DNA of 64,000 nucleotides from a bacterium (GCA_021778295.1 JAJYCP010000001.1:66513-130512); one strand, 5' to 3'. Shown: positions 12,134 through 48,838, numbered from the stretch's first letter. Made by a program: numbers and translations. The notes: generated from the letters alone by a model not told the origin.

Positions 12134-12787
12134 TCATGATTCGCTCGTCTCTTTCCGTAGCACCGTGCGCTGCTCCTCGGTGAGTCGTGGCGGGCTTCCC
12201 GTTTCCTGGTAGGTATGCCAGGTCTGCTCCCACGCGTCGCGAAAGATCTCGAACAGGACACTGTCGACGAACGTACCATTGTAGAAATGGTGAGCCGCCC
12301 GACGACCGACTTGCCGGTAGCCGCAGGCAAGCAAGTGGCCCCAACTATTGTCGTTGAAGACCTTGACCTCCGAACAGACTTTCCGGAGGCCCCGGTTGCG
12401 AAACGCTTCATAGAGGAGTAGCAGTTTCGCTTCGGTCCCGTAGCCTTTTCCGAAACACGACTTGTCGGCGATGATGGTACCGCTCGTCGCGTGGCCGTCG
12501 GGATAGGTGATGCTGTGCAGACCAGTGTGCCCGATGTAGCGGTAGCCGGTCATCGTACCCATCTCGTCGCGCTCGTGAAGCAGAATAGCGAAGGTGACGT
12601 TGCCAGTCCTGCTCGCCATACCGTCGTACCACGCGAACTCCGCTTCGAGCGTAACGGGCGGGCGCAAGGTGACGCCGCGCATCACGTCTGGGTCGTTGGC
12701 CCCCTGCATGAAGAGGGGGATGTAATCACGGCGCATCGCGCCGAGTGAGACGTTATAGCCTTGATGAATGGGCGAATGGTCGCTCAT
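12134..12787 (-). CDS. GNAT-family N-acetyltransferase (RimJ/RimL-like).
   Basis: 217 aa. Acetyl-CoA-binding region ...DKSCFGKGYGTEAKLLLLYEAF.... Confidence 0.75.
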   Translation of the reverse strand: MSDHSPIHQGYNVSLGAMRRDYIPLFMQGANDPDVMRGVTLRPPVTLEAEFAWYDGMASRTGNVTFAILLHERDEMGTMTGYRYIGHTGLHSITYPDGHATSGTIIADKSCFGKGYGTEAKLLLLYEAFRNRGLRKVCSEVKVFNDNSWGHLLACGYRQVGRRAAHHFYNGTFVDSVLFEIFRDAWEQTWHTYQETGSPPRLTEEQRTVLRKETSES

Positions 12788-13030: not shown

Positions 13031-13125
13031 TTGACAACACAATATTTTTTATTAAACTAATTACAGACTGTTCTTTGCTGCGGATTAACTGCACGCAGAG
13101 GTAACGGTTATTTTGTGATAAGGAG
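13031..13125 (+). promoter_or_regulatory. Promoter plus conserved 5' leader, module copy A.
   Basis: TTGACA(13031)-N16-TAAACT-N6-AGACTGTTCTTTG...GGTAACGGTT...AAGGAGATG. Near-identical in architecture to 19781..19876. Confidence 0.5.
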
Positions 13126-13518
13126 ATGAGACAAATGAACGACATCATGTCCTCATGTATGCAACCCGATATCATCCAATCGGATCCACTCCCTGATTTG
13201 AAGAACGTTCCTCTGTTTGGGGCAGAAGACCAGACGTGCTTAGAGGAGATTGCAACGGTGCTGAAAAAGCACGGACGGCTAGACCGATTTGGCGTCACGT
13301 TGCTGCATCAGCACTTTCCAGTCGGCGACAACGAAATACTGCTGGAAAAGAACGATCCAGCCTCGCGTACCCTCGAAATGCGTCCATGTAATCGGGCAGA
13401 GCTCGAAGGTATGGACGCCAGGATCACCAGCTGGCGGTTGGATTCGGGGAAACCGCAGATGGCCTGCGTCTGCATCAATTTCGGTGGAGGCGAGCATCAA
13501 CATCTTTCTCGTGGATAA
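13126..13518 (+). CDS. Hypothetical protein (130 aa).
   Basis: Good SD AAGGAG. Lies in a low-GC island. No recognisable domain. Confidence 0.5.
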   Translation: MRQMNDIMSSCMQPDIIQSDPLPDLKNVPLFGAEDQTCLEEIATVLKKHGRLDRFGVTLLHQHFPVGDNEILLEKNDPASRTLEMRPCNRAELEGMDARITSWRLDSGKPQMACVCINFGGGEHQHLSRG

Positions 13519-13562
13519 CTCTCCAGCTATACCTACGACCGGAGCCTTGCTCCGGTCGTTTT

Positions 13563-14051
13563 CTATAATTTAATAGTGTAGAGGTACGTAGGTGTTGGTG
13601 AATCAGGTACGGATACTTTTTTTTCAAAAACACCTCGGTTATGCTCGATGATTTTCCGCGAAGCAACATTCGTTTCATCGGAGGCAATGATAAGTTTGTC
13701 CATACCGAGATCTCGAGCCTTCTCAATGCCCAGTGCAAGTATTTTGGTCCCGTATCCTTTGCTTTGTTCAGAGGGGCGTATTTCGTAATACACATGACTT
13801 GCAATATCGGAAAACCTCCCGCTCGGGTTTTTTCTGATTTGAATTCGACCAAGATACTTTTCATTTTCTTGAAGCCAATATTCCGTGCGAGCAACTTCGC
13901 CAAGGCGTAGGTTTATTCCAAACGATGCATCTTTACTGTGTGTTATGTATTCTGAAATCTCATCATTACCTAAATAGATAGCTTGCTCTTCGAGAGCTTT
14001 TTGAAACGAAGCTGCCAACGTTTGAGAGGGTTCCACGAGGAATGCGGCCAT
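13563..14051 (-). CDS. GNAT-family acetyltransferase.
   Basis: Q/R-x-x-G-x-G/A-like motif SKGYGTKILALGIEKARDLG. ATG at 14051. Low-GC island. Confidence 0.7.
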   Translation of the reverse strand: MAAFLVEPSQTLAASFQKALEEQAIYLGNDEISEYITHSKDASFGINLRLGEVARTEYWLQENEKYLGRIQIRKNPSGRFSDIASHVYYEIRPSEQSKGYGTKILALGIEKARDLGMDKLIIASDETNVASRKIIEHNRGVFEKKVSVPDSPTPTYLYTIKL

Positions 14052-14279
14052 CAATACATATCATACTTGAGATCTCAATTACGTGGAACTGGGAGGGGAT
14101 TTCTCCAAATCAACAACCTTGTTCTGACACAAAAGAAATCCAATCTTCAGATGTATTATATTATCAACAGTAAATTCTCAATAATGTAATGCCATACTCT
14201 ATGCATGCCATGAGTCGTTCGAGAAAAATGGCGGCTGACCCCATTTCTCCCGCTAGGTTTTGCGTGCTATAGTCTTTGC

Positions 14280-15365
14280 ATGACGGCGGAAACTCGCCCG
14301 GTCATCCTCACAGGCGACAGCGAAGTCGCCAAGCTTCGGGCGTCGCATTCGGAACTCACTGAAGTCGACGCATTCTCCCGCCAGATCAAAGAGCTTTTCT
14401 TTATCGATAATCATGCGTTCATTGGTACGCCGAAAGAAGAGGCCTATGCGACCGAGGATTTCAAGAAGTATGCGTCTTCGAAAGAGGGCGCATTTGTCTA
14501 TGTATATTTCCCCTGGAACAATACGCTCGTAAAGACTGTAGATGCCGGGGATTACTACCAGCTCAAGACGAACCGCAATCAGGACCTTATCACTGCCGAA
14601 GAACAGAAGAAACTGCGCGACTACAAAGTGGCCGTGCTTGGCATGAGCGTCGGGTCAAACGTGGCCTTTGTATTGACGCAGGCGGGTATCAGCAACGACA
14701 TCATTCTCGCCGACTTCGACGAGCTCGATACCACAAATCTTAATCGCATCCTTGCGGGCGTTCATGAAGTTGGCTTGAACAAGACCGTCATTGCGGCGCA
14801 CCGCATTTATGAAGATAATCCGTTTGCGAACGTTACCTTGCTCCAGGGAGGCGTGAATGAAACCAATCTCGAAGAGCTCATCAAAGCCGGCAAGATAGAC
14901 TGTATTCTCGAAGAGATCGACGACATGCCGTTCAAGATTCACGCGCGCCTGCTCGCGATGAAATACAAGATTCCTGTTGTGATGGTGACCGACAATGGCG
15001 ACGGCGTCGTACTCCACGTCGAGCGGTATGATCTCGGCCATGACAAAATCTGGGGCAAGCCGCACGAATACTACGAGGAAAAGCTCGCCGACGGCCCAAT
15101 GACGAAAGAGAAGGCGGGCGACGTCATCATCCACGACATCGTCGGCGGCGTGCATCGGGTCGATCCGAAAATGATTGCAAGCGTGAAGCGCGTGCTTGCT
15201 AAAGAACTGGTGTCGTGGAGCCAGCTCGGTTCGGCAGCCATTCTTGGCGCAGTCGTCGCGACCTACGCGATTAAAGAAATCGCGCTCGGGAAGGGTACCG
15301 AGAAAGACATTCGCGCCTGGATCTCTCCGGAAAGCGTCGAAAAAGGTACGCATTCCCACTCATAA
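14280..15365 (+). CDS. E1-like ThiF/MoeB-family adenylyltransferase with a ~115-aa N-terminal extension.
   Basis: Rossmann motif KVAVLGMSVGSNVAFVLTQAGI...ILADFDELDTTNLNRIL has the ThiF/TcdA-like architecture. No CxxC zinc motif. TATAGT sits 6 nt before ATG. Confidence 0.7.
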   Translation: MTAETRPVILTGDSEVAKLRASHSELTEVDAFSRQIKELFFIDNHAFIGTPKEEAYATEDFKKYASSKEGAFVYVYFPWNNTLVKTVDAGDYYQLKTNRNQDLITAEEQKKLRDYKVAVLGMSVGSNVAFVLTQAGISNDIILADFDELDTTNLNRILAGVHEVGLNKTVIAAHRIYEDNPFANVTLLQGGVNETNLEELIKAGKIDCILEEIDDMPFKIHARLLAMKYKIPVVMVTDNGDGVVLHVERYDLGHDKIWGKPHEYYEEKLADGPMTKEKAGDVIIHDIVGGVHRVDPKMIASVKRVLAKELVSWSQLGSAAILGAVVATYAIKEIALGKGTEKDIRAWISPESVEKGTHSHS

Positions 15366-15371
15366 AAATCT

Positions 15372-16478
15372 ATGCTTGGCTTTTCAGATACCGGAGACAT
15401 CACAAGCATCGAAGCTTTGAAAGAGTTCGATAACCACCCGCTCGTCTCCTTTGCACACGACAAAGAATCCGGCTTGTCTGCAGTCATCGCTATCCATCGT
15501 GCCAACCCGGACGTCCCGTCTTTCGGCGCGACGCGTTTTTGGCACTACGCTTCCTCGCTTGAGGGCGTCAAAGATGCGCTTCGCCTCTCCCGACTCATGT
15601 CCTACAAAGCGGCGCTCGCAGGTCTTAATTGCGGTGGCGCAAAGGGCGTGATCATTGCGCAGAGCGATCCTCAAAAAATGGAGAACACCGTCCGTGACTC
15701 CATTTTGGGGGCGTATACAGCGCGTGTGAATCTCCTTGGCGGCCGTTTCGTGACAGGCAGCGATGTGGGCATCCGGCAGGTAGATCTTGATGCCATGCGT
15801 AAAGTTTCGCGGCATGTCATCGGCTTTAATGACAACTCAACGGAGTTTACGGCACTTGGCGTTTTCGAAGCGCTCAAAGCGGCCCTTATGGAAGTGTTTG
15901 GCTCAAGTGAACTCAAAGGCCGCGCCTTTGCGATTCAGGGCCTTGGAAAGATCGGTGAAGGGTTCCTCTCGTATATTTATGAGCCGGTTGGAACGGCGGG
16001 AAAGATTTTTGTATCAGACATTGACGCAAATCGCGTGGAAGAGATCAAACGCAAATATCCGCGTGTCATGGCGGTTGCGCCATCAGAAATTGATCGCCAG
16101 GAAGTAGACGTGTTTGCCCCCTGCGCGCTTTCAGGCGCTGTGAATAAACGCAACGCATCCCGCCTTGCGTGCAAAATTGTTGTGGGGGGCGCAAACAACC
16201 AGCTTGAAACAGAATCGGCAGGCGATGCATTGTTTGAGCGCGGCATTCTCTATGCGCCAGACTACGTGGTAAACGCAGGGGGGCTCATTGCGGTATTCGA
16301 TGAATACAAAAATCCGGCGTATGACCGTACTCGCGTCGAGCGTGCGGTACTTCACATTCCCGAGACTTTGCGAAAGATTTTTGCTGAAAGCCGCGCGGAG
16401 AAAATAGCGCCGAGCCGCATCGCAAACCGCATGGCAGAAAAGATTTTCAATGGATATGGAAATATCACATCGCGCTAA
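15372..16478 (+). CDS. Glu/Leu/Phe/Val-family amino-acid dehydrogenase (Leu/Phe/Val dehydrogenase-like).
   Basis: Catalytic Lys in GGAKGVI. NAD Rossmann motif GLGKIG. C-terminal VVNAGGLI. 368 aa. Confidence 0.8.
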   Translation: MLGFSDTGDITSIEALKEFDNHPLVSFAHDKESGLSAVIAIHRANPDVPSFGATRFWHYASSLEGVKDALRLSRLMSYKAALAGLNCGGAKGVIIAQSDPQKMENTVRDSILGAYTARVNLLGGRFVTGSDVGIRQVDLDAMRKVSRHVIGFNDNSTEFTALGVFEALKAALMEVFGSSELKGRAFAIQGLGKIGEGFLSYIYEPVGTAGKIFVSDIDANRVEEIKRKYPRVMAVAPSEIDRQEVDVFAPCALSGAVNKRNASRLACKIVVGGANNQLETESAGDALFERGILYAPDYVVNAGGLIAVFDEYKNPAYDRTRVERAVLHIPETLRKIFAESRAEKIAPSRIANRMAEKIFNGYGNITSR

Positions 16479-16502
16479 ATATTCTTTTACCCCTCCTAAA
16501 AC

Positions 16503-18044
16503 ATGAAATACCCTCTGCAAGAGATACGCACGCTCGAACTCCCGACCGCCTTGCGCAATATAGAGCACCTCGAAAAACGGCTGCGCGAGGACGCTCCGCG
16601 CCTCTGGGAACGTCGCGGCGAAATACAAGCGCTCAAACTCTTCCACGCCATGGCCGAACGAGTTCCCGCGTACAAGGATGTGCTGAAGAAAAACCGCATC
16701 CGCCCCGATTCCGTCCGCTCAATGCAAGATTTCAAACAGCTCCCACTTTTGGATAAGACCAGCTACCTGCGCGCCTATCCTCTGAAGGAGTTGTGCTGGG
16801 ACGGTGAGTTCTCCGAACGCGCATGGACCGTTTGCACGACTTCCGGCTCGACCGGCGAGCCGTTCTATTTTCCACACGGAGCGATGCAAGATGCGCAGTA
16901 TGCGCTCTTCGCCGAACTCTATCTGCGCACCAACTTTCAAATTCATAAGAAGCGCACGCTCTACGTCAACGGATTCCCAATGGGTGCGTGGATAGGCGGT
17001 GTCTTTACCTATAAAGCGATAACCATGCTCGCCGAGCGCGGCGATTATCCGCTCAGCATCATCAATCCGGGCATCAATAAAATCGAGATTATCAAAGCGA
17101 TTCGCAAGCTTGGCGACGACTTCGATCAGGTCATCATCGGCGGTTACGGTCCGTTCGTCAAAGATACGCTCGACGACGGCATTCGGGAGGGGATGGATTG
17201 GAAGAAATACAATCTCGGCTTCATCTTCTCGGCCGAAGGATTTTCCGAAGGTTTCAGGGATTACGTACTTGAGATGGCGGGGAAGAAAGACGATATCACC
17301 GCGACCCTCAATCACTACGGCACAGTTGACCTCGGGACGATGTCGTACGAAACGCCGCTTGCGGTGCTCGCGCGCCGCCGCGCGGTGGAGCATCCGGAAC
17401 TGTACCGGAAGCTGTTTGACAATTCCATCCGGCTGCCGACGCTGACGCAATTCCTCCCGAGCCTCTTTTTCTTTGAGGAAGTGGACCGGACGCTCGTGTG
17501 CTCCGCGGCGGCCGGCCTTCCGCTTGTACGATACGATTTAAAAGATGTCGGCGGCGTGTACCGGTACGACGAACTAACCGACGCGTTCCATGCGGCCGGC
17601 GTCGACCTCGAGAAGGAGCTCTCCGGCCGGGGTCTTGCGCAAACACGATGGAGCCTGCCGTTCGTATACGTCTACGAGCGGAACGATTTCTCGGTCAGTT
17701 TCTATGCATTCCAGATTTATCCGGCGACTATCCGGCGCGCGCTCGAGCAGACGTCGCTTCGCTCGAAGCTGACGGGGAAGTTCGCAATGCGCGTGGAGTA
17801 TGACCGCAACCAGAACCAGCGGTTTGAAGTCAATGTCGAACTCAAGAGCGGTGTGGTGCGTACCGATGCGCTGAAAGAGAAGGTGACGAAACTGGTGACT
17901 GAACAGTTGCTCAAAGAAAGTTCCGAGTACCGCGAGACACATCGCATGAAAGGACGTCGCGTCTTCCCACATGTAGTGTTCTGGCCATACGAGCACGAGC
18001 GCTTTTTCCGTTCGGGCATCAAGCAGAAGTGGGTAGTACGTTAG
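16503..18044 (+). CDS. PaaK/coenzyme F390 synthetase-family adenylate-forming enzyme (phenylacetate-CoA ligase-like).
   Basis: AMP-binding P-loop TSGSTGEP near residue 110. Has the size (513 aa) and layout of the PaaK/CapK family. Confidence 0.7.
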   Translation: MKYPLQEIRTLELPTALRNIEHLEKRLREDAPRLWERRGEIQALKLFHAMAERVPAYKDVLKKNRIRPDSVRSMQDFKQLPLLDKTSYLRAYPLKELCWDGEFSERAWTVCTTSGSTGEPFYFPHGAMQDAQYALFAELYLRTNFQIHKKRTLYVNGFPMGAWIGGVFTYKAITMLAERGDYPLSIINPGINKIEIIKAIRKLGDDFDQVIIGGYGPFVKDTLDDGIREGMDWKKYNLGFIFSAEGFSEGFRDYVLEMAGKKDDITATLNHYGTVDLGTMSYETPLAVLARRRAVEHPELYRKLFDNSIRLPTLTQFLPSLFFFEEVDRTLVCSAAAGLPLVRYDLKDVGGVYRYDELTDAFHAAGVDLEKELSGRGLAQTRWSLPFVYVYERNDFSVSFYAFQIYPATIRRALEQTSLRSKLTGKFAMRVEYDRNQNQRFEVNVELKSGVVRTDALKEKVTKLVTEQLLKESSEYRETHRMKGRRVFPHVVFWPYEHERFFRSGIKQKWVVR

Positions 18045-18061
18045 CCATAAGCTTAATTATC

Positions 18062-18847
18062 TTATTCTCCCTCTACTTTTTTTGTTTCGTTAGCATCGAG
18101 TCGTCCAGCTTCTTCCCATGCAAGATTGAAGAGACTCTCTATAACATCTGCAATATCCTGACTCTGAATAATCACACCGAATTCCTCGCTTGTTGAAATG
18201 AATACGATTTTGTCCGCATATATACGCAGTTCAGAAGAAAATGGGTATATATCGGCTGGTACACTTCGTACTCTTGAGGCGTCATTCGCATTTAACAGCG
18301 CGCGCTCGACAGTTTTTTCGTAAGGGAAAATAATCTTCGTTTTATACTTGCGTTGCAAATTTTGATTATCCCAAAAGGAAAATGATGATCCGAATGTAGT
18401 TTTTGATATAGGTAAAAATGTATACACTTGCGTCCCAGGCGGGTAGGCTAGTAGGTCATTACTAACAGTTTGTATTCCGCCAACTCCTTCGTAAAACAAC
18501 ACGTGTGGTTGGCTCTTTAATTTCTTCGATACTGAAAGAAGTTCGGAAAGTAATAAACTCATTTCATTTTCCTGTCGAGCCGAGTCCTGAGCCAACTTAT
18601 CAGCTCGTTCCACAAGTTTTTCTGGAGAGACAGCATGATATTTAAGAATCCCATTCTGTTGTGTTTTCTCGACAAATCCCTGTTCCACAAGCGTAGCAAG
18701 TAACATATAGGCCGACGATCGATTGAGTTTTGCTTCTCTTGCGGCCTCGTGCGCGCTTGCCGGACCCATAGTAAGTAATTCCTGATAAAGAACCGCCGCT
18801 TTTTGTGAAAGCCCAAATTCTTGGAGGTGTGACAGTAAAGTATTCAT
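18062..18847 (-). CDS. TrmB-family transcriptional regulator (paralog 1).
   Basis: N-terminal TrmB winged HTH: LQEFGLSQKAAVLYQELLTMGPASAHEAAREAKLNRSSAYMLLATLVEQGFV. Low-GC island. Confidence 0.65.
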   Translation of the reverse strand: MNTLLSHLQEFGLSQKAAVLYQELLTMGPASAHEAAREAKLNRSSAYMLLATLVEQGFVEKTQQNGILKYHAVSPEKLVERADKLAQDSARQENEMSLLLSELLSVSKKLKSQPHVLFYEGVGGIQTVSNDLLAYPPGTQVYTFLPISKTTFGSSFSFWDNQNLQRKYKTKIIFPYEKTVERALLNANDASRVRSVPADIYPFSSELRIYADKIVFISTSEEFGVIIQSQDIADVIESLFNLAWEEAGRLDANETKKVEGE

Positions 18848-19623
18848 GGAAATTCATCACCTATCCTCCGCGCTTCTCCGATCGCAAGGTCAAAAATTGT
18901 CTTCATTAATTCCGCAATTTTCTTACTTCTAATGAACGCTGTAAAAAGGAATGTGTGCGACATAAAAATCGTCTTATCATCGTAGACAGCAAAATCAGCA
19001 GGGAATCGATACCTGTCTTCTGAGATAAAAAAATGTGTATCCAAATCCTTAGACACAGGCATATTCTTAAATGCATTCATACTGTGAGGCTCTGCCGGAT
19101 GAATCCCAACCATACCGATGTTTCTTTCCATCCGTTTCTGGACATAGGGAGGTAGATAATCGGGTAAGGTTCTAAAAATTTCAGGACCGGAGGAAATAAC
19201 CCGCATATATCCCTCTTTTAGAGAAAGACTATCATCAAATCCGTCTATTAACCCCTGCCGTCCTTCAAGTATAGTAACTTTGGGCCTGTAACGTGCCCCC
19301 CGATGTTTCGAGGAAAGTGTCGGAAGCATGGTCCGCAGGTTTTTACTAAGCAGCTCATGCTTTTCAGTCTTTTCCTTTGCTAGTTGCAGAAGATGTTCGG
19401 GTGGGGCAGCCACATATTTTCTGACCCCATGAGTAGTTCCGATGCTTATGAGCCCTTGTTTAATAAGCCGTTCAATGACTACGTACATTGAGCTACGGTT
19501 GATACCTGTCTCCTTACTAGCCAACTGAGCTGTAGCTCCATCGAGGGACAAAAGTGCAAGGTAGACCTGAGCATCCTTTTCGGGAAGCCCTAGTGCAGAG
19601 AGTCGTTTTGCGAGGGGTGTCAT
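18844..19623 (-). CDS. TrmB-family transcriptional regulator (paralog 2).
   Basis: LSALGLPEKDAQVYLALLSLDGATAQLASKETGINRSSMYVVIERLIKQGLI. Overlaps paralog 1 by 4 nt. Confidence 0.65.
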   Translation of the reverse strand: MTPLAKRLSALGLPEKDAQVYLALLSLDGATAQLASKETGINRSSMYVVIERLIKQGLISIGTTHGVRKYVAAPPEHLLQLAKEKTEKHELLSKNLRTMLPTLSSKHRGARYRPKVTILEGRQGLIDGFDDSLSLKEGYMRVISSGPEIFRTLPDYLPPYVQKRMERNIGMVGIHPAEPHSMNAFKNMPVSKDLDTHFFISEDRYRFPADFAVYDDKTIFMSHTFLFTAFIRSKKIAELMKTIFDLAIGEARRIGDEFP

Positions 19624-19780
19624 ATTGGCACAACAGGCGGAAACTCACTTCGCCCATTTGTTGTCACATACTAGCAACAGTATTCAATATAAGCAAGCAA
19701 CTACGGGCTTAGAGGTGAGGCAGTCCATTCTGACATTTTTACCCTCATTTCGATCTTCTTTCGAAAATAGTTGTTAATTG

Positions 19781-19876
19781 TTGACAACATTCTCCTCTTG
19801 GACAAACTACCCATAGACTGTTCTTTGTCATGGATTGTCCGTGACCAGGGTAACAGTTGCTTTGTGGAGATGTGTG
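19781..19876 (+). promoter_or_regulatory. Promoter plus conserved 5' leader, module copy B.
   Basis: TTGACA(19781)-N16-CAAACT-N6-AGACTGTTCTTTG...GGTAACAGTT...GGAGATG. Same spacing to the ATG as copy A. Confidence 0.5.
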
Positions 19877-20461
19877 ATGAAACACATTCATCATGAATTA
19901 CCGTGGGGTAGCAATTCTTCTCCAGTCCTTGCAATCGGCGGCGGTGATGGCGGTTGTTATCAGAAAATCCAGGCGCTCGATTTGGAACCCATCATGGTCA
20001 AACTCATGGATCCGGTCGAGGGTGAAGGATGGACCCTTGAGCAGGTGCGCGAGACGGAGGTCTGGTACAAGCGGTTTCTGTACCTCAACGCCGTCTATCC
20101 AGATCGCTCAATCGTGCCGACTCATGCTATTGACTCGTTCTGGCACTACCACATCCTCGACACGCTGAAGTATGCTGAGGACTGCCAGATCGCGTTCGGC
20201 TACTTCCTGCACCATTTCCCGTACTTCGGTATGCGCGGTGACGAAGACCAACAGAACCTCCTGGATGCGAGCGAGCAGACTTGGGATCTGTTTCGCGAAC
20301 ACTTCAACGAAGAACCGGTAATCCTGCACGGAGATGTGAGCAAATGCGTTAAATCGTGCACTGGCAAAACATGTTCTCATTGCAAGGCTCCAACCTGTTC
20401 CAGTGGTCCGAAGGTGCGGAGCAACGAACGTCCGCGACTGGCTGTTGCGGTGGCCGTGTAG
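19877..20461 (+). CDS. Glycine-rich-domain-protein-like (DUF1399-like) protein with a Cys-rich C-terminal tail.
   Basis: Motif AIDSFWHYHILDTLKYAEDCQIAFGYFLHHFP. Tail CVKSCTGKTCSHCKAPTCSS. SD GGAG lies before ATG 19877. Confidence 0.45.
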   Translation: MKHIHHELPWGSNSSPVLAIGGGDGGCYQKIQALDLEPIMVKLMDPVEGEGWTLEQVRETEVWYKRFLYLNAVYPDRSIVPTHAIDSFWHYHILDTLKYAEDCQIAFGYFLHHFPYFGMRGDEDQQNLLDASEQTWDLFREHFNEEPVILHGDVSKCVKSCTGKTCSHCKAPTCSSGPKVRSNERPRLAVAVAV

Positions 20462-20522: not shown

Positions 20523-21404
20523 TTATTTTAGAAAAGCATCGAACCAGTTAACAATTTCTTGATCCACTTGTGTCTCGTATTCTTCTAATGCATGTGTACC
20601 CCGTGGATATGCTATGAGCTTGAAATCACGGAAATGTCCAGCTGCTTTTTCTGCAAACCGAAATGCTTCGCGTGAGTCAACGCGCCAATCTGCCATTCCA
20701 CACAACACTAAAAGTGGCACAGCACGCGGAATCTCTTTATACCAATAGATGACTGAACGTTTTTTCTTTTCTTCACGTGAACCACCAAACATTTTCTGAA
20801 AATGTTTTCTCATTTCTGGACGGTATGTCTCCTGGAAAAACAAATCGGTAGGGCCAGATACAACAACCGCAGCGCGTACCCATCTTGTTTTCTGAAGCGT
20901 GCGATACGTCATAATACCTCCGCGGCTAAAGCCATACATGCCGATTTTCTTTGTATCGCAAAAAGATAGTCCTGCGATAATTTTTTTTAGATTTATCACA
21001 TCATGAAGATCCAAACCACCCATCTCATCAACGCCTTCACCTCCAGCAACACCAGAATATTGAGATGCGATAACGACATAGCCAGCGCGCGCGAGCGCGG
21101 CAATAGTGCCAGTAAATAACCATCCGATTCGAATTGCGCCAAATTCACCACTACCGCCACGGTTGTACACTACAGTCGGTGCGCGAGCAGTATGTTTCTT
21201 TGGTACAACTATATAGCCCACAACCGCATGGCCTTGAGAAGTGTAAGTGAATCGGTAAGCGGTCATATACTTCTGGTTCTTTTTCACTTCAACGGAAAAG
21301 TCTTGACCGAATCGAGCCCGGAGTTCTCTGGTTATAACGATTTTTCTTACCTCGCGCACGATTGGGACTTTCATAAGATCGCGCAACACAAGATCATCTT
21401 TCAT
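20523..21404 (-). CDS. Alpha/beta-hydrolase of the S9 peptidase/dienelactone-hydrolase type.
   Basis: Nucleophile elbow GFSRGG with downstream Asp and His. 293 aa. TATAGT sits 6 nt before ATG. Low GC. Confidence 0.65.
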   Translation of the reverse strand: MKDDLVLRDLMKVPIVREVRKIVITRELRARFGQDFSVEVKKNQKYMTAYRFTYTSQGHAVVGYIVVPKKHTARAPTVVYNRGGSGEFGAIRIGWLFTGTIAALARAGYVVIASQYSGVAGGEGVDEMGGLDLHDVINLKKIIAGLSFCDTKKIGMYGFSRGGIMTYRTLQKTRWVRAAVVVSGPTDLFFQETYRPEMRKHFQKMFGGSREEKKKRSVIYWYKEIPRAVPLLVLCGMADWRVDSREAFRFAEKAAGHFRDFKLIAYPRGTHALEEYETQVDQEIVNWFDAFLK

Positions 21405-21449
21405 AATAACTATATGCTAGCAGGGTATAAAATCAGTGTCTATCTCCGG

Positions 21450-21480
21450 TAATTACTACTACTAATAGTAGTAGTAATTA
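21450..21480. promoter_or_regulatory. Perfect 31-bp palindrome TAATTACTACTACTA-A-TAGTAGTAGTAATTA (candidate operator).
   Basis: Read directly from the sequence. Lies about 45 bp upstream of the hydrolase start, in a 400-bp AT-rich intergenic region. Confidence 0.35.
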
Positions 21481-21803
21481 ATAGGAACAGGAGTCCAAAA
21501 ATGGATCCGCCAAGCTGTATTCTCCAAGGACTAGGGAGTTTGAGAATCATTGAGAAAAGTTTTAACCGTATACTACACAGGTAGCAGTATCCGACGATCA
21601 GTGTAGTGGTCACGAAGGTTCAACAGGCGGCGGTAACGGAACAAGGGGCAAATAATCTGATGTTCCCATTAGGCTGGTAGTTGAAAAATCAACTACTCAT
21701 ACCCCGAGTGTTTCCGAATAATGAAACACCTGAGGATTAACGAGGTTAGCATTTCTTAAATCAGTTATAATGGAACTATGGGGGTTTTCTTAACCCAACG
21801 AAT

Positions 21804-22865
21804 ATGGTTCCCGATAACACAATTCTTCTTGAAATTCTGCGAGATGCTTGTCGAGCTCCCTCTGGTGATAATGTTCAGCCGTGGCGTTTCCGGTGGGACG
21901 GCTTGACACTATCCCTCTACAACATCCCTGGCATCCATAACTCATACCTTGATTTTGAAGAACGTGGCGCATATATCGCACATGGTGCGCTCCTCGAGAA
22001 CCTCGCGATTGCCGCCCCACATTACGGCTACAACGTCTCGATAATGCTCTTCCCGGATCAGGGGATGCCCGACCTTGTCGCACGCGTCGCCTTTGCGCCT
22101 AGCGCTACATATGACGACCCGCTGTATGCGAGCATTCAGAGACGCGCAACAAACCGTCGACCGTATGCATCACGCGCACTTGCGTCCGATGCACGTGCCG
22201 CGCTCAAGGACGTTGCGATGCCTGAGGGTATGACGCTCGTTCTCATTGAAGATGCTGCAAAAAGAGAGACGCTCGCGCCGCATATAAGCGCAATCGAGCA
22301 GCTCTTGCTCGGCCATGCGGCTCTGTCGAGCGCATTTTTCGCTCATATCGTGTGGACGAAGCGTGAAGAACGTGCGAGACGTAGCGGATTCTACGTAAAA
22401 ACCATGGAGTTCAATCCAGTGCAGGCATTCGTATTCAAGCTCGCGAGTAAGCCCTGGCTTATGCGCGCGTTCCGCAAACTTGGGCTCCCCGCACTCATTG
22501 CGAGTGAAGATGCTAAGATATATGGGGGAGGCTCGGCACTCGGGGGACTGTATGCGCCAGACTTTTCCAAAACCAGCGCACTTGCGCTCGGACGTGCACT
22601 TGAGCGCGTATGGCTTACTGCGACGACGCACGGACTCGCGTTCCAACCACTCTTCGGTACCACCATGATGGGGTACAAGTCGCGCCGCGGCGAAGCGATG
22701 TTCCTCTCGGATGCGGAACGTGCCGCCATTGAAGTAAGCGCGCTCTCTCTTGAGACGGCATTCAGAAATACGCGCGATACACCGACGCTCATCTTCCGTG
22801 TCGGCTATGCCCAGGAACCGAGTGCGTATACGTCTCGGAAGGAACCGAACATAGTTTATAATTAG
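21804..22865 (+). CDS. Nitroreductase-family protein (tandem/large form).
   Basis: N-terminal SGDNVQPWRF nitroreductase motif. A second nitroreductase-like half gives 353 aa in total. Confidence 0.65.
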   Translation: MVPDNTILLEILRDACRAPSGDNVQPWRFRWDGLTLSLYNIPGIHNSYLDFEERGAYIAHGALLENLAIAAPHYGYNVSIMLFPDQGMPDLVARVAFAPSATYDDPLYASIQRRATNRRPYASRALASDARAALKDVAMPEGMTLVLIEDAAKRETLAPHISAIEQLLLGHAALSSAFFAHIVWTKREERARRSGFYVKTMEFNPVQAFVFKLASKPWLMRAFRKLGLPALIASEDAKIYGGGSALGGLYAPDFSKTSALALGRALERVWLTATTHGLAFQPLFGTTMMGYKSRRGEAMFLSDAERAAIEVSALSLETAFRNTRDTPTLIFRVGYAQEPSAYTSRKEPNIVYN

Positions 22866-22872
22866 GGCACCC

Positions 22873-24471
22873 ATGGGTGCCCTTGCGAATTTTGATCTCT
22901 TGTCGGTGGGCGTTGCCATCGCGGGCACGCTTGTGCTCGGGTTCGTCATTTATTTCACAGACCAGAAGAGCAGTACGAACCGCATTTTCTTCGCGTTCGC
23001 ATTCGTCACCGCAATATGGGGCTTGCTCAACTATCTCAGTTATCGCGTCGAAGATCTATCCATCGCGTTCGCACTCCTACGCTTCGAACTCGCGCTCGCC
23101 GTGTGGCAAACGTTCATAATTTTTCGACTCCTGCTCATCTTTCCGGATCACAACGACACGCTTCCACGGCGCTATCTGCTCGCGCTTGTCGTGTACACGG
23201 GCGTCATATCCGTGCTGTGCCTTACGCCGTTCGTCTTCGAGCGTATCACTGCAGTTACCGCCACTGGGTATATCAAAGACATAGCCGTCGGGCCGGCAAT
23301 CGCGCTCTTCGGCGTCACAAGTATAGGGTTCGTCCTTGCAGGATGGGTAGTGTGCGCCCGAAAGACGTTCCGCCTCATGGGCACACAGCGTGCGCAAACG
23401 GGATTCTTCCTGCTCGGAGCGATTACGATGTTCTTGCCAATCATCATCCTGAACTTCATCTTCCCAGCATTCTTGCGGGATTCGAGGTTCGTTCCGTACG
23501 GTGCGGTCTCGATATTCCCGTTCGTACTGTTCACGTCCTACGCAATCCTGCGTTTCCATTTGTTCAACATCAAGGTCATCACGACTTCCATACTCGTATT
23601 CGTGCTTTCCGTCGTTTCATTTGGCCAGGTCCTTTTCTCGGATACGTTGCCTACGATGCTGTTCCAGACAAGCGTTTTCGTCCTCGTCCTCGTCTTCGGC
23701 ATCAATCTGATACGGAGCGTCATACGCGAAGTAGAGCAACGAGAGAAAATACAGAAGCTCGCCGAGGAGCTCGCGGCGACCAACGAGCGACAGGAGACGC
23801 TGATTCACTTCATCGGGCACGAAGTCAAAGGGTTCCTGGCCAAGGACGCAGGCGCGTTCACTTCGCTTGTTGACGGCGATTTTGGCGTATTGCCCGGGGA
23901 ATTGAAACCGCTTGTGGAACGCGCGCTCGTTGAGACGCGGCAGGGCGTTGCGTCGGTGGAGGCTCTCCTAAAGGCGGCAAACTTGAAGAAAGGGACCGTA
24001 ACGTATACAAAAGCGCCGTTTGACCTCAAAGAGCTCGTTGCGGGGGCCGTAGAGAAAGAGAGGCCTGCGGCTGAGAACAAAGGGCTCGCGCTCTCGTTTA
24101 CAGCCGACGACGCGTCGTACCAAATGACGGGGGATAAGGGGCAAATCAACGACCACGTCCTGCGCAACCTCATAGATAACGCTGTCAATTACACGCCATC
24201 GGGCTCGATTGCAGTATCGCTCAGGCGCGAGGGCGACAAGCTCGTGTTCGCAGTGAAAGACAGTGGCGTCGGCATCACCGACGAAGACAAGCAGCGTCTT
24301 TTCACCGAGGGCGGCCACGGCAAGGATTCGCAGAAGGTGAATGTCCATTCCACCGGCTATGGTCTTTACATCGCAAAGCAGATAGTCGAGGCGCACGGCG
24401 GCACCATCCGCGCCGAGTCTGAAGGGCAGGGCAAGGGCTCGACGTTTATCGCAGAATTTCCGGCCCAGTAA
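22873..24471 (+). CDS. Sensor histidine kinase with a multi-TM N-terminal sensor.
   Basis: About 7 TM helices. H-box HFIGHEVKG. N box NLIDNAVNYT. G1 DSGVGI. G2 GYGLYIAKQIVEAHGG. No response regulator adjacent. Confidence 0.8.
   Translation: MGALANFDLLSVGVAIAGTLVLGFVIYFTDQKSSTNRIFFAFAFVTAIWGLLNYLSYRVEDLSIAFALLRFELALAVWQTFIIFRLLLIFPDHNDTLPRRYLLALVVYTGVISVLCLTPFVFERITAVTATGYIKDIAVGPAIALFGVTSIGFVLAGWVVCARKTFRLMGTQRAQTGFFLLGAITMFLPIIILNFIFPAFLRDSRFVPYGAVSIFPFVLFTSYAILRFHLFNIKVITTSILVFVLSVVSFGQVLFSDTLPTMLFQTSVFVLVLVFGINLIRSVIREVEQREKIQKLAEELAATNERQETLIHFIGHEVKGFLAKDAGAFTSLVDGDFGVLPGELKPLVERALVETRQGVASVEALLKAANLKKGTVTYTKAPFDLKELVAGAVEKERPAAENKGLALSFTADDASYQMTGDKGQINDHVLRNLIDNAVNYTPSGSIAVSLRREGDKLVFAVKDSGVGITDEDKQRLFTEGGHGKDSQKVNVHSTGYGLYIAKQIVEAHGGTIRAESEGQGKGSTFIAEFPAQ
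24398..24461. repeat. 64-bp direct repeat, copy 1 (last 21 codons of the HK gene).
   Basis: Identical to 26573..26636 (gcggcaccatccgcgccgagtctgaagggcagggcaagggctcgacgtttatcgcagaatttcc). Confidence 0.85.
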
Positions 24472-27539: not shown

Positions 27540-27611
27540 CTCCGGGAGCAGGACTCGAACCTGCAACCAACGCCTTAACAGGGCGCTGCTCTACCATTGA
27601 GCTATCCCGGA
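27540..27611 (-). tRNA. tRNA-Asn (anticodon GTT).
   Basis: Cloverleaf folded by hand: acceptor TCCGGGA/TCCCGGA, D-arm GCTC-AATGGTA-GAGC, anticodon arm GCGCC-CTGTTAA-GGCGT, T-arm GCAGG-TTCGAGT-CCTGC, discriminator G. No encoded CCA. Terminator hairpin AAACACCCCTTCGGGTGTTTTTT lies downstream. Confidence 0.85.
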
Positions 27612-48766: not shown

Positions 48767-48838
48767 TGACCCTACAGAGAATCGAACTCTGATTTGATCC
48801 TTGAGAAGGATCCGTCCTAGCCGTTAGACGATAGGGCC
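48767..48838 (-). tRNA. tRNA-Glu (anticodon CTC).
   Basis: Hand-folded: acceptor GGCCCTA/TAGGGTC (G-U at 2-71), 3-bp D-stem GTC/GAC typical of tRNA-Glu, anticodon arm GATCC-TTCTCAA-GGATC, T-arm CAGAG-TTCGATT-CTCTG, discriminator A. No encoded CCA. Confidence 0.8.

Follow-up and report, generated by a model that had tools for sequence, protein, structure and literature searches.

The window analysed here, a 64-kb stretch of DNA taken as a whole, comes from an ultrasmall bacterium of the Minisyncoccota (CPR). It carries two copies of a promoter and 5'-leader module, copy A and copy B, each upstream of a monocistronic gene closed by a strong terminator; it is the terminator following the copy A gene that marks the latter as a monocistronic unit. 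The features of the two loci are as follows:

13031-13036, plus strand: -35 hexamer TTGACA of copy A (promoter scan TTGACA-N16-TAAACT, 10 of 12 matches); the conserved stretch continues to 13039 and reads TTGACAACA
13053-13058, plus strand: -10 hexamer TAAACT of copy A (promoter scan), with 7 nt to the first paired base of the hairpin
13065-13077, plus strand: conserved 13-mer AGACTGTTCTTTG of copy A, N6 after the -10 hexamer
13066-13109, plus strand: leader hairpin of copy A (fold; covariance model R2), with lower stem P1 formed by 13066-13072 and 13103-13109 and upper stem P2 by 13077-13083 and 13089-13095
13082-13086, plus strand: invariant GGATT (GGAUU in RNA) of copy A
13100-13109, plus strand: GGTAAC(G/A)GTT block GGTAACGGTT of copy A
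13120-13125, plus strand: Shine-Dalgarno sequence AAGGAG of copy A (from sequence reading)
13135-13518, plus strand: coding sequence of the copy A gene, His/Cys-rich hypothetical protein, 127 aa from ATG 13135
13535-13559, plus strand: intrinsic terminator of the copy A gene (scan: 11-bp stem, 8 GC pairs, T tract)
19781-19786, plus strand: -35 hexamer TTGACA of copy B, inside the 11-nt palindrome TGTTGACAACA (19779-19789)
19803-19808, plus strand: -10 hexamer CAAACT of copy B, N16 spacer, with 7 nt to the first paired base
19815-19827, plus strand: conserved 13-mer AGACTGTTCTTTG of copy B, N6 after the -10 hexamer
19816-19858, plus strand: leader hairpin of copy B (fold; covariance model R2), with P1 formed by 19816-19822 and 19852-19858 and P2 by 19827-19833 and 19839-19845
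19832-19836, plus strand: GGATT (GGAUU) of copy B
19849-19858, plus strand: GGTAAC(G/A)GTT block GGTAACAGTT of copy B
19866-19869, plus strand: Shine-Dalgarno sequence GGAG of copy B, 7 nt before the start codon (from sequence reading)
19877-20461, plus strand: coding sequence of the copy B gene, UCP032817-like protein (PF27765 / weak GRDP-like), 194 aa
20494-20521, plus strand: intrinsic terminator of the copy B gene, common to the convergent S9 peptidase gene
20523-21404, minus strand: S9 peptidase gene, convergent with the copy B gene

The two copies have in common the -35 and -10 hexamers, the 13-nt block, GGATT, the GGTAAC(G/A)GTT block, TTTGTG and the GGAG Shine-Dalgarno sequence, and every block described in the first-pass annotation was found where it had been placed. 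The -10 hexamer of copy B is too weak to be reached by a generic promoter scan. Taken alone, the 13-mer repeat is unremarkable, at least two matches being present in 27 of 100 shuffles when up to two mismatches are allowed. The collinear similarity of the two copies is nevertheless non-random: the local alignment of 13031-13125 with 19781-19876 scores 30.5, while a background of 3181 further stretches, taken from both strands of the window, gives a mean of 7.8 (sd 1.3) and a maximum of 14.5. The copies are thus homologous, and their similarity is not confined to the promoter boxes, as it extends well past them into the hairpin. The low GC content noted earlier around both copies is also evident (0.41-0.49 against about 0.55). 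No third copy was detected in the 64-kb window by the covariance model.

The open reading frame of the copy A gene opens at 13126, the database gene call starts at 13147, and the orthologues align from ATG 13159. The first-pass annotation read the end of the leaders as (A)GGAGATG, with the adjoining ATG as the start codon of the copy A gene; the stretch is rather made up of the Shine-Dalgarno sequence GGAG and a spacer. ATG 13126 abuts GGAG without spacing and is therefore probably not the start codon of the copy A gene, which is likely ATG 13135, located 9 nt after GGAG. The copy B gene starts at ATG 19877 rather than at ATG 19870.

The products of the two genes are unrelated, with a profile-profile (hhalign) homology probability of 0.13%, so that the module does stand before unrelated genes, as proposed. 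The copy A product (the 130-aa protein) has no match in Pfam, NCBIfam or PDB, and its family comprises 27 homologues only, with invariant His and Cys residues in the motifs LLHxHF, CxC, and HxH (alignment A5). The exact sequence of the 194-aa copy B protein is present in a public protein collection, and proteins of the same cluster are annotated in Minisyncoccota MAGs (Patescibacteria/CPR); it has no match in NCBIfam and only the weak GRDP-like match in Pfam. Invariant motifs of this family are WHxH and LHHFPY, accompanied by nearly invariant C-terminal cysteines (alignment A6). The invariant His and Cys residues of both families hint at metal binding by the two window proteins. A PDB sequence search and a Foldseek comparison of their AlphaFold models (pLDDT 78 and 76) gave nothing significant, and the literature search revealed nothing on bacterial DUF1399/UCP032817.

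Both copies adjoin a cluster of accessory genes (14280-18044 and 21804-24471) coding for ThiF-like/Rv1355c-type, ScyB-like and PaaK-like proteins, an Acg-type oxidoreductase and a 7TM sensor kinase. The ThiF-like protein corresponds to the N-terminal half of the Rv1355c family, and the Acg-family FMN oxidoreductase to its C-terminal half; the mycobacterial Acg/Rv3131 family is a member of the dormancy regulon. The ScyB-like protein is a Trp/Glu-type dehydrogenase, the PaaK-like one has 513 aa, and the sensor kinase is of the HisKA_7TM type and lacks a response regulator in its vicinity. No similar leader is present in two further intergenic regions of the cluster, 14055-14279 and 21405-21803. 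The same accessory set is located beside motif-led genes at three loci of relatives, L001, L004, and L013.

Two tandem TrmB-like genes (18062-19623, minus strand), encoding proteins of 261 and 259 aa and overlapping by 4 nt, are located in the lowest-GC kilobase of the region (0.41). This pair is missing from L004-L006, the closest relative, where synteny is otherwise kept, and looks like a strain-specific insertion between the gene of the 513-aa protein and copy B. The copy A gene is flanked by two GNAT genes (12134-12787 and 13563-14054, minus strand). The GNAT/130-aa/GNAT block is missing at the syntenic position in L004-L006, where a 186-aa gene, adjacent to an ICMT-like gene, is located directly upstream of the ThiF-like gene.

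Each motif-led gene is convergent with an enzyme gene and has a common terminator with it: the 130-aa gene (13135-13518) is paired with the GNAT Acetyltransf_3 gene (13563-14054), and the UCP032817-like gene (19877-20461) with the S9 peptidase gene (20523-21404). The first pairing recurs in L001, L002, L010, and L011, and the second in L004, L012, L013, L014, L016, and L018, with L017 as an exception. Recurrence of these convergent arrangements in most close relatives suggests two-gene functional modules.

Distribution and conservation of the leader motif

Nine distinct instances of the motif were identified, all in sense orientation and with a start codon 59-90 nt further downstream. Included are copies A and B, L004 (identical in L005-L009), L154, L013, L014/L015, L016, and two instances of a diverged type (L001-L003 and L213). 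The motif thus has further copies in related genomes. In Minisyncoccota MAGs and in metagenomes, the genes behind these instances belong to three families unrelated to one another. Orthologues of the UCP032817-like gene are led by the motif in L004-L009 (90% protein identity), L013, L014/L015, and L016; it persists before orthologues that are only 69-82% identical in protein and whose flanking intergenic DNA is unalignable. Upstream of the orthologues in L012, L214, L017, and L018, several of which are close, the motif is wholly absent. In L154 it heads a third, unrelated ORF of 232 aa with no match in Pfam or NCBIfam.

Orthologues of the 130-aa gene (L001-L003 and L213) carry at the same place a more diverged version (GCUCAUUGUUAGRG...), in which GGAUU is replaced by GAGGUU or GGGACU (L001 and L213), and which is followed by a second hairpin. 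This hairpin is located between the motif and the Shine-Dalgarno sequence of the 118-aa orthologues (9956-9985 in L001 and 866-895 in L213), and its arms are wholly different in sequence, ACAAGG/CCUUGU in L001 versus GAAUUCAUGAGG/CCUCGUGAAUUC in L213. Since the second hairpins differ so completely, the comparison suggests that a two-hairpin leader is conserved in the orthologues and has been lost by copy A.

A metagenome scan with AGACTGTTCTTTGNNNNGGATT returned 115 loci, of which one, L154, is a true instance. About 100 of the 115 matches represent one recurring coding sequence, many of them on human gut metagenome contigs, and the others, L154 excepted, are unrelated single matches. The UCP032817-like protein was used to scan a collection of genome contigs, from which the lineage of the window is apparently absent; the relatives retrieved, from many phyla and at most 65% identical in the best segment, all lack the motif. 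Nor did the covariance model detect a copy at 79 loci with genes for distant UCP032817-like proteins in other phyla, and the motif was not found in scans of viral contigs. Because the module is carried by relatives too, the element is probably an undescribed, lineage-restricted regulatory leader. A repeat of MITE or REP type was rejected, given two copies per 64 kb, sense orientation in nine of nine instances and a fixed distance to the promoter and the Shine-Dalgarno sequence.

The promoter geometry is fixed. All nine instances have a TTGAC(A/T/G)-like -35 box, a spacer of 16-17 nt and a TAnnnT-like -10 box, the weak -10 box of L014 (TACCAA) having been assigned by eye after the automatic scan did not find it. 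Base pairing of the hairpin begins in every instance 7-8 nt downstream of a plausible -10 box, that is, in the predicted start region of transcription. Conservation along the leader is patchy. Across the seven copy-B-type leaders the -35 hexamers are 95% identical, and mean pairwise identity among the same leaders is 25% in the upstream 30 nt, 35% in the spacer, 55% in the -10 box, 33% in the discriminator, 78% in the 5' half of the hairpin and 49% in its 3' half. L004, L154, and L013 agree fully in the contiguous block TCTTTGTCACGGATT. A spacer and discriminator that are near random, next to a hairpin 5' half conserved at 78%, are a sign of selection, to judge from these sequences. The difference between the two halves suggests sequence-specific recognition. 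Part of the asymmetry follows from RNA pairing rules, under which A/G transitions opposite U are neutral; the 3' strands of L013 and L016 pair poorly, and a sequence-specific constraint is therefore present as well. A DNA site at +1 to +25 would be expected to produce the same bias towards the 5' half.

The 11-nt perfect palindrome TGTTGACAACA overlaps the -35 box not only in copy B but also in L154 (about 444-454); copy A and L004 carry it only in part. The palindrome might serve as a DNA operator in its own right, which would account for the conservation past the -35 box as TTGACAACA.

Copy A differs in its affinities from the leaders of its own orthologues. Its hairpin is 65-68% identical to those of copy B, L004, and L154, and 45-49% identical to those of L001 and L213; it is not accompanied by the second hairpin of the orthologous leaders, and the protein encoded in the window is longer at its N terminus than its orthologues. 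At L004, the locus of the closest relative, both the 130-aa/GNAT module and the TrmB pair are missing. The greater similarity of copy A to the copy-B type indicates that the module was probably grafted onto the 130-aa gene, in line with the mobile promoter cassette that the first-pass annotation offered as an alternative. A copy-B-type module, or a close relative of it, would have been recombined to a position in front of the acquired 130-aa gene, replacing the native two-hairpin leader and adding a short N-terminal extension. The grafting would not be recent, since the spacers have been randomised in the meantime. Such an origin fits the reuse of promoters described in prokaryotes (PMC3575422).

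Hairpin structure and covariation

The shared core of the leader is an imperfect hairpin of about 44 nt, which starts 7-8 nt after the -10 box, at about the predicted +1/+2, and is separated at its end from the Shine-Dalgarno sequence by 5-12 nt. It has about 19 bp, arranged as the lower stem P1, a U·G-rich middle region, the upper stem P2 and an apical loop opening with GGAUU. The folds of copy A (-19.6 kcal/mol, z = -4.4) and copy B (-20.2 kcal/mol, z = -3.8) are more stable than dinucleotide shuffles, z ranging from -3.5 to -4.4 for the hairpin folds of both copies. Covariance model R2 recognizes copy A with 49 bits (E = 3e-10) and copy B with 57.8 bits (E = 1.6e-12). In Rfam 15 at the gathering threshold, the whole window matches only two tRNAs (27540-27611 and 48767-48838, minus strand), with no leader family, rRNA or other known RNA family. 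With E values up to 10, copy A remained unmatched, and copy B gave only sub-threshold antisense matches (RT-6, 18 bits versus a gathering score of 46.7).

The nine sequences of alignment A4 were used to evaluate base pairing in a hairpin of two helices, P1 and P2, with 14 pairs in all. Standard pairs occupy 83.3% of the cells, versus 29.5-51.6% in controls with the 3' partners slid by 1-3 columns. Both sides have changed at 6 of the 14 pairs, for example from U-A to C-G (columns 10/43) and from C-G to G-C or U-A (columns 20/30). The covariation score of 0.438 compares with at most 0.157 in the slid controls and was reached by none of 500 shuffles. The arms of P2 may be wholly different between leaders and still complementary (GUCAUGG/CCGUGAC, GUCUUGG/CCAAGAC, CUGCGG/CUGCA); the compensatory changes between the apical stems of copies A and B, first noticed in the window itself, are thus confirmed. 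With nine distinct sequences and a structure derived from these same sequences, the covariation statistics are suggestive, not decisive. The closest orthologues differ by three pair-breaking versus four pair-preserving substitutions, and P2 of L016 is down to three pairs.

The two strands are not equivalent. G·U combinations fill 19 cells of the alignment and A·C combinations 6, and the mean fold energy is -17.5 kcal/mol for the sense and -11.2 kcal/mol for the antisense strand. This excess of G·U pairs and the poorer folding of the antisense strand speak for an element of RNA rather than for a site in double-stranded DNA, and it is quite likely that the hairpin has been selected as RNA.

No alternative fold sequestering the Shine-Dalgarno sequence was found consistently across the leaders when the 3' strand was blocked from pairing. 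In L016 (5862-5880), the P1 3' strand (CUGCUCC) shares nucleotides with a CUCC...GGAG hairpin in which the Shine-Dalgarno sequence would be sequestered, so that P1 formation and masking would be mutually exclusive there; the other leaders have no such overlap. Pairing of UUCUUU with the Shine-Dalgarno sequence upon opening of the hairpin was discarded, as inspection of the sequences allows only 4-6 weak pairs, some of them G·U, with no consistent alternative fold. A leader peptide or uORF was discarded as well, inspection having revealed no reading frame conserved between the copies.

Possible functions of the leader

The reading that we favour, with a probability of about one in two and by analogy with known leader hairpins, has the hairpin protect the mRNA as a stem-loop at its 5' terminus, where a trans-acting factor would recognise it beside the Shine-Dalgarno sequence. 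A sigma-70-type promoter, TTGACA-N16-TAnnnT, would start transcription 7-8 nt after the -10 box, and the first ~44 nt of the mRNA would fold into the irregular hairpin. The latter would act on RNA rather than on DNA, its position at the terminus shielding the mRNA 5' end. The conserved 5' strand and loop may form a sequence-specific docking site for a factor encoded elsewhere, such as an RNA-binding protein or a double-strand-specific RNase. Once docked, this putative factor would set mRNA lifetime and/or ribosome access to the adjacent Shine-Dalgarno sequence, in either direction of regulation. The presumed outcome is co-regulation of a few unrelated accessory genes in this Minisyncoccota lineage. 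Stem-loops at the 5' terminus are established mRNA stabilisers, as in ompA and aprE, and leader hairpins, as in rne, are known docking sites for autoregulatory RNases (reviewed in PMC3997798). A far-reaching form of this reading seems rather doubtful: the element would be the operator of an undescribed Minisyncoccota post-transcriptional regulon, a leader RNA of a new class, responsive to a protein, an RNase or an ion, that spread by promoter-leader grafting between accessory genes for His/Cys-rich proteins, with the dormancy-like cluster adjoining.

The conserved segment could instead be a DNA operator. A transcription factor, for example one of the adjacent TrmB-like proteins, would block RNA polymerase by binding to double-stranded DNA, either in the region from about +1 to +45 or at the -35 box with its palindrome TGTTGACAACA, the hairpin being a mere footprint of a palindromic site. 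This would suit the contiguous TCTTTGTCACGGATT block identical in three loci, the stronger conservation of the hairpin 5' half (78% versus 49%), the presence of the 11-nt palindrome in copy B and L154, and the operator-like geometry of P2, which at the DNA level is a 7-bp inverted repeat with a spacer of 3-5 bp. Two TrmB-family genes are, moreover, divergent from copy B. The link to these regulators suggested by the first-pass annotation is not supported, however, because no TrmB genes are present beside the motif in L004, L013, L014, and L016; copy A is located 5 kb from the pair. The half-sites are not conserved either, P2 arms being fully different between copies and still complementary, and an apical stem that varies on both arms is not expected of a fixed operator. 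The arms of P1, about 30 bp apart, are too distant for a dimer site, and a symmetric site would show neither the predominance of G·U over A·C cells (19 versus 6) nor an antisense fold worse by 6 kcal/mol. We consider this explanation unlikely.

Two further explanations keep the RNA but assign it another task, and both appear quite improbable. In one of them, the U·G-rich internal region and the GGAUU loop would bind a metabolite or metal as a small riboswitch or ion sensor and thereby control the downstream genes, two of which code for His/Cys-rich proteins. The conserved nucleotides do cluster in the middle region and the loop, the tandem U·G pairs are of a type that constitutes classical metal sites, His and Cys residues are invariant in the two window proteins, and such a sensor, having no Rfam match, would be a new class. 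The distribution is, however, very narrow and the evolution fast, as illustrated by the replacement of GGAUU in L001 and L213, while close orthologues manage without the element. No expression platform is apparent, neither a competing terminator/anti-terminator nor a consistent fold sequestering the Shine-Dalgarno sequence, and a hairpin that starts at +1 leaves no upstream strand for switching. The pairing is supported on nine sequences only, and the fold is a simple stem-loop. In the other explanation, the hairpin and its U-rich tail (UUAUUUUGUG in copy A) would terminate transcription or pause it at about +50. TTNTTT is the consensus of NusG-dependent pausing in Bacillus, and TTCTTT at +7 to +12, which matches it, could act on the non-template strand as a pause signal of this type. 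U-rich tracts follow the hairpin in copies A and B, L004, L154, and L016, but the tails of L013 and L014 are not U-rich, and TTNTTT is missing in L016, L001, and L213. Neither leader hairpin is called by the terminator scan, which does detect strong GC-rich terminators behind both genes, and no anti-terminator partner is possible upstream of +1.

Finally, the module might be a neutral relic, a duplicated promoter and ribosome-binding-site fragment with a functionless leader. Reuse of promoters before unrelated genes is indeed common in prokaryotes, more than 4000 groups having been reported (PMC3575422). Neutral decay would hardly produce the patchy similarity described above (35% in the spacer and 33% in the discriminator against 78% in the hairpin 5' half), the retention of the motif before 69-82%-identical orthologues with unalignable flanks, or complementarity kept through two-sided changes, and we regard such a relic as very improbable.

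Genomes of Patescibacteria/CPR are tiny, little has been reported on their gene regulation, and their regulatory RNAs are essentially uncharted; the literature search returned no natural regulatory RNA described for this group. A leader hairpin before three accessory gene families would give a handle on post-transcriptional control in CPR bacteria and an example of rewiring in which a promoter has moved along with a regulatory leader. The motif, at about 45 nt, is small enough for direct testing. Were the hairpin only a 5' stabiliser, it would be an ordinary device, and the result would mainly document promoter-leader reuse.

Comparison with known systems

Among leader hairpins read by proteins, CsrA/RsmA sites present GGA in a hairpin loop and a second GGA in the Shine-Dalgarno sequence, with the SELEX consensus RUACARGGAUGU. 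The leaders described here resemble them in having CA(C/U)GGAUU atop the hairpin and another GGA in the Shine-Dalgarno sequence about 35 nt downstream, the pattern in the window being GGAUU at 13082 and 19832 and GGAG at 13122 and 19866. They differ in that the GGA is partly base-paired and the motif is degenerate in L001 and L213. A tblastn search of the window and ~100 related loci with the CsrA proteins of E. coli and B. subtilis found no homologue.

Leaders of rnc and pnp are cut by RNase III, and the thrS operator is a protein-bound leader hairpin; the present hairpin could likewise be a docking or cleavage site. Hairpin hp2 of the rne 5'-UTR, bound by RNase E (PMC3997798), is similar in being an irregular hairpin of ~20 bp next to the Shine-Dalgarno sequence, in which nucleotides of the loop and bulges are conserved. 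Autoregulation is common to the known cases, which are located before the gene of the binder itself, whereas here unrelated proteins are encoded downstream.

The 5' stem-loop stabilisers of E. coli ompA and papA and of B. subtilis aprE (PMC3997798) are comparable in position, the hairpin being at most 1-2 nt from the predicted 5' end and upstream of a strong Shine-Dalgarno sequence. A stem at the mRNA 5' end upstream of the Shine-Dalgarno sequence has the geometry that blocks 5'-end-dependent decay (PMC3997798). Classical stabilisers need structure only, while the present element also keeps a block of 13-22 nt and the GGAUU loop, and their retention across genes and genomes implies specific recognition.

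Short conserved elements at the 5' end of several mRNAs of one organism are also known from stress regulons. Shared 5'-UTR elements of this kind include the 'cold box' of the cspA family and the ROSE and fourU thermometers. The resemblance suggests, by analogy, a post-transcriptional regulon behind the shared 5'-end element. There is no sequence similarity to these elements, the downstream genes are not known stress genes, and the location of the Shine-Dalgarno sequence outside the hairpin does not correspond to a thermometer design.

A further parallel is provided by putative mobile promoters (PMC3575422; Matus-Garcia, Nijveen & van Passel), in which highly similar promoter-to-RBS regions precede non-homologous genes of one genome. 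The copies described here agree with this pattern in their alignment score (30.5 against a maximum of 14.5), their unrelated proteins and the third gene type behind the motif in L154; the same type of leader occurs in related genomes, and the native leader of copy A has apparently been swapped. They differ in that the reused unit includes a structured, covarying 5'-leader and in that the copies are old, with randomised spacers and no visible transposon or insertion-sequence vehicle. Overall, the leader motif is real, apparently undescribed and lineage-restricted, and it combines known kinds of element rather than representing a new kind.
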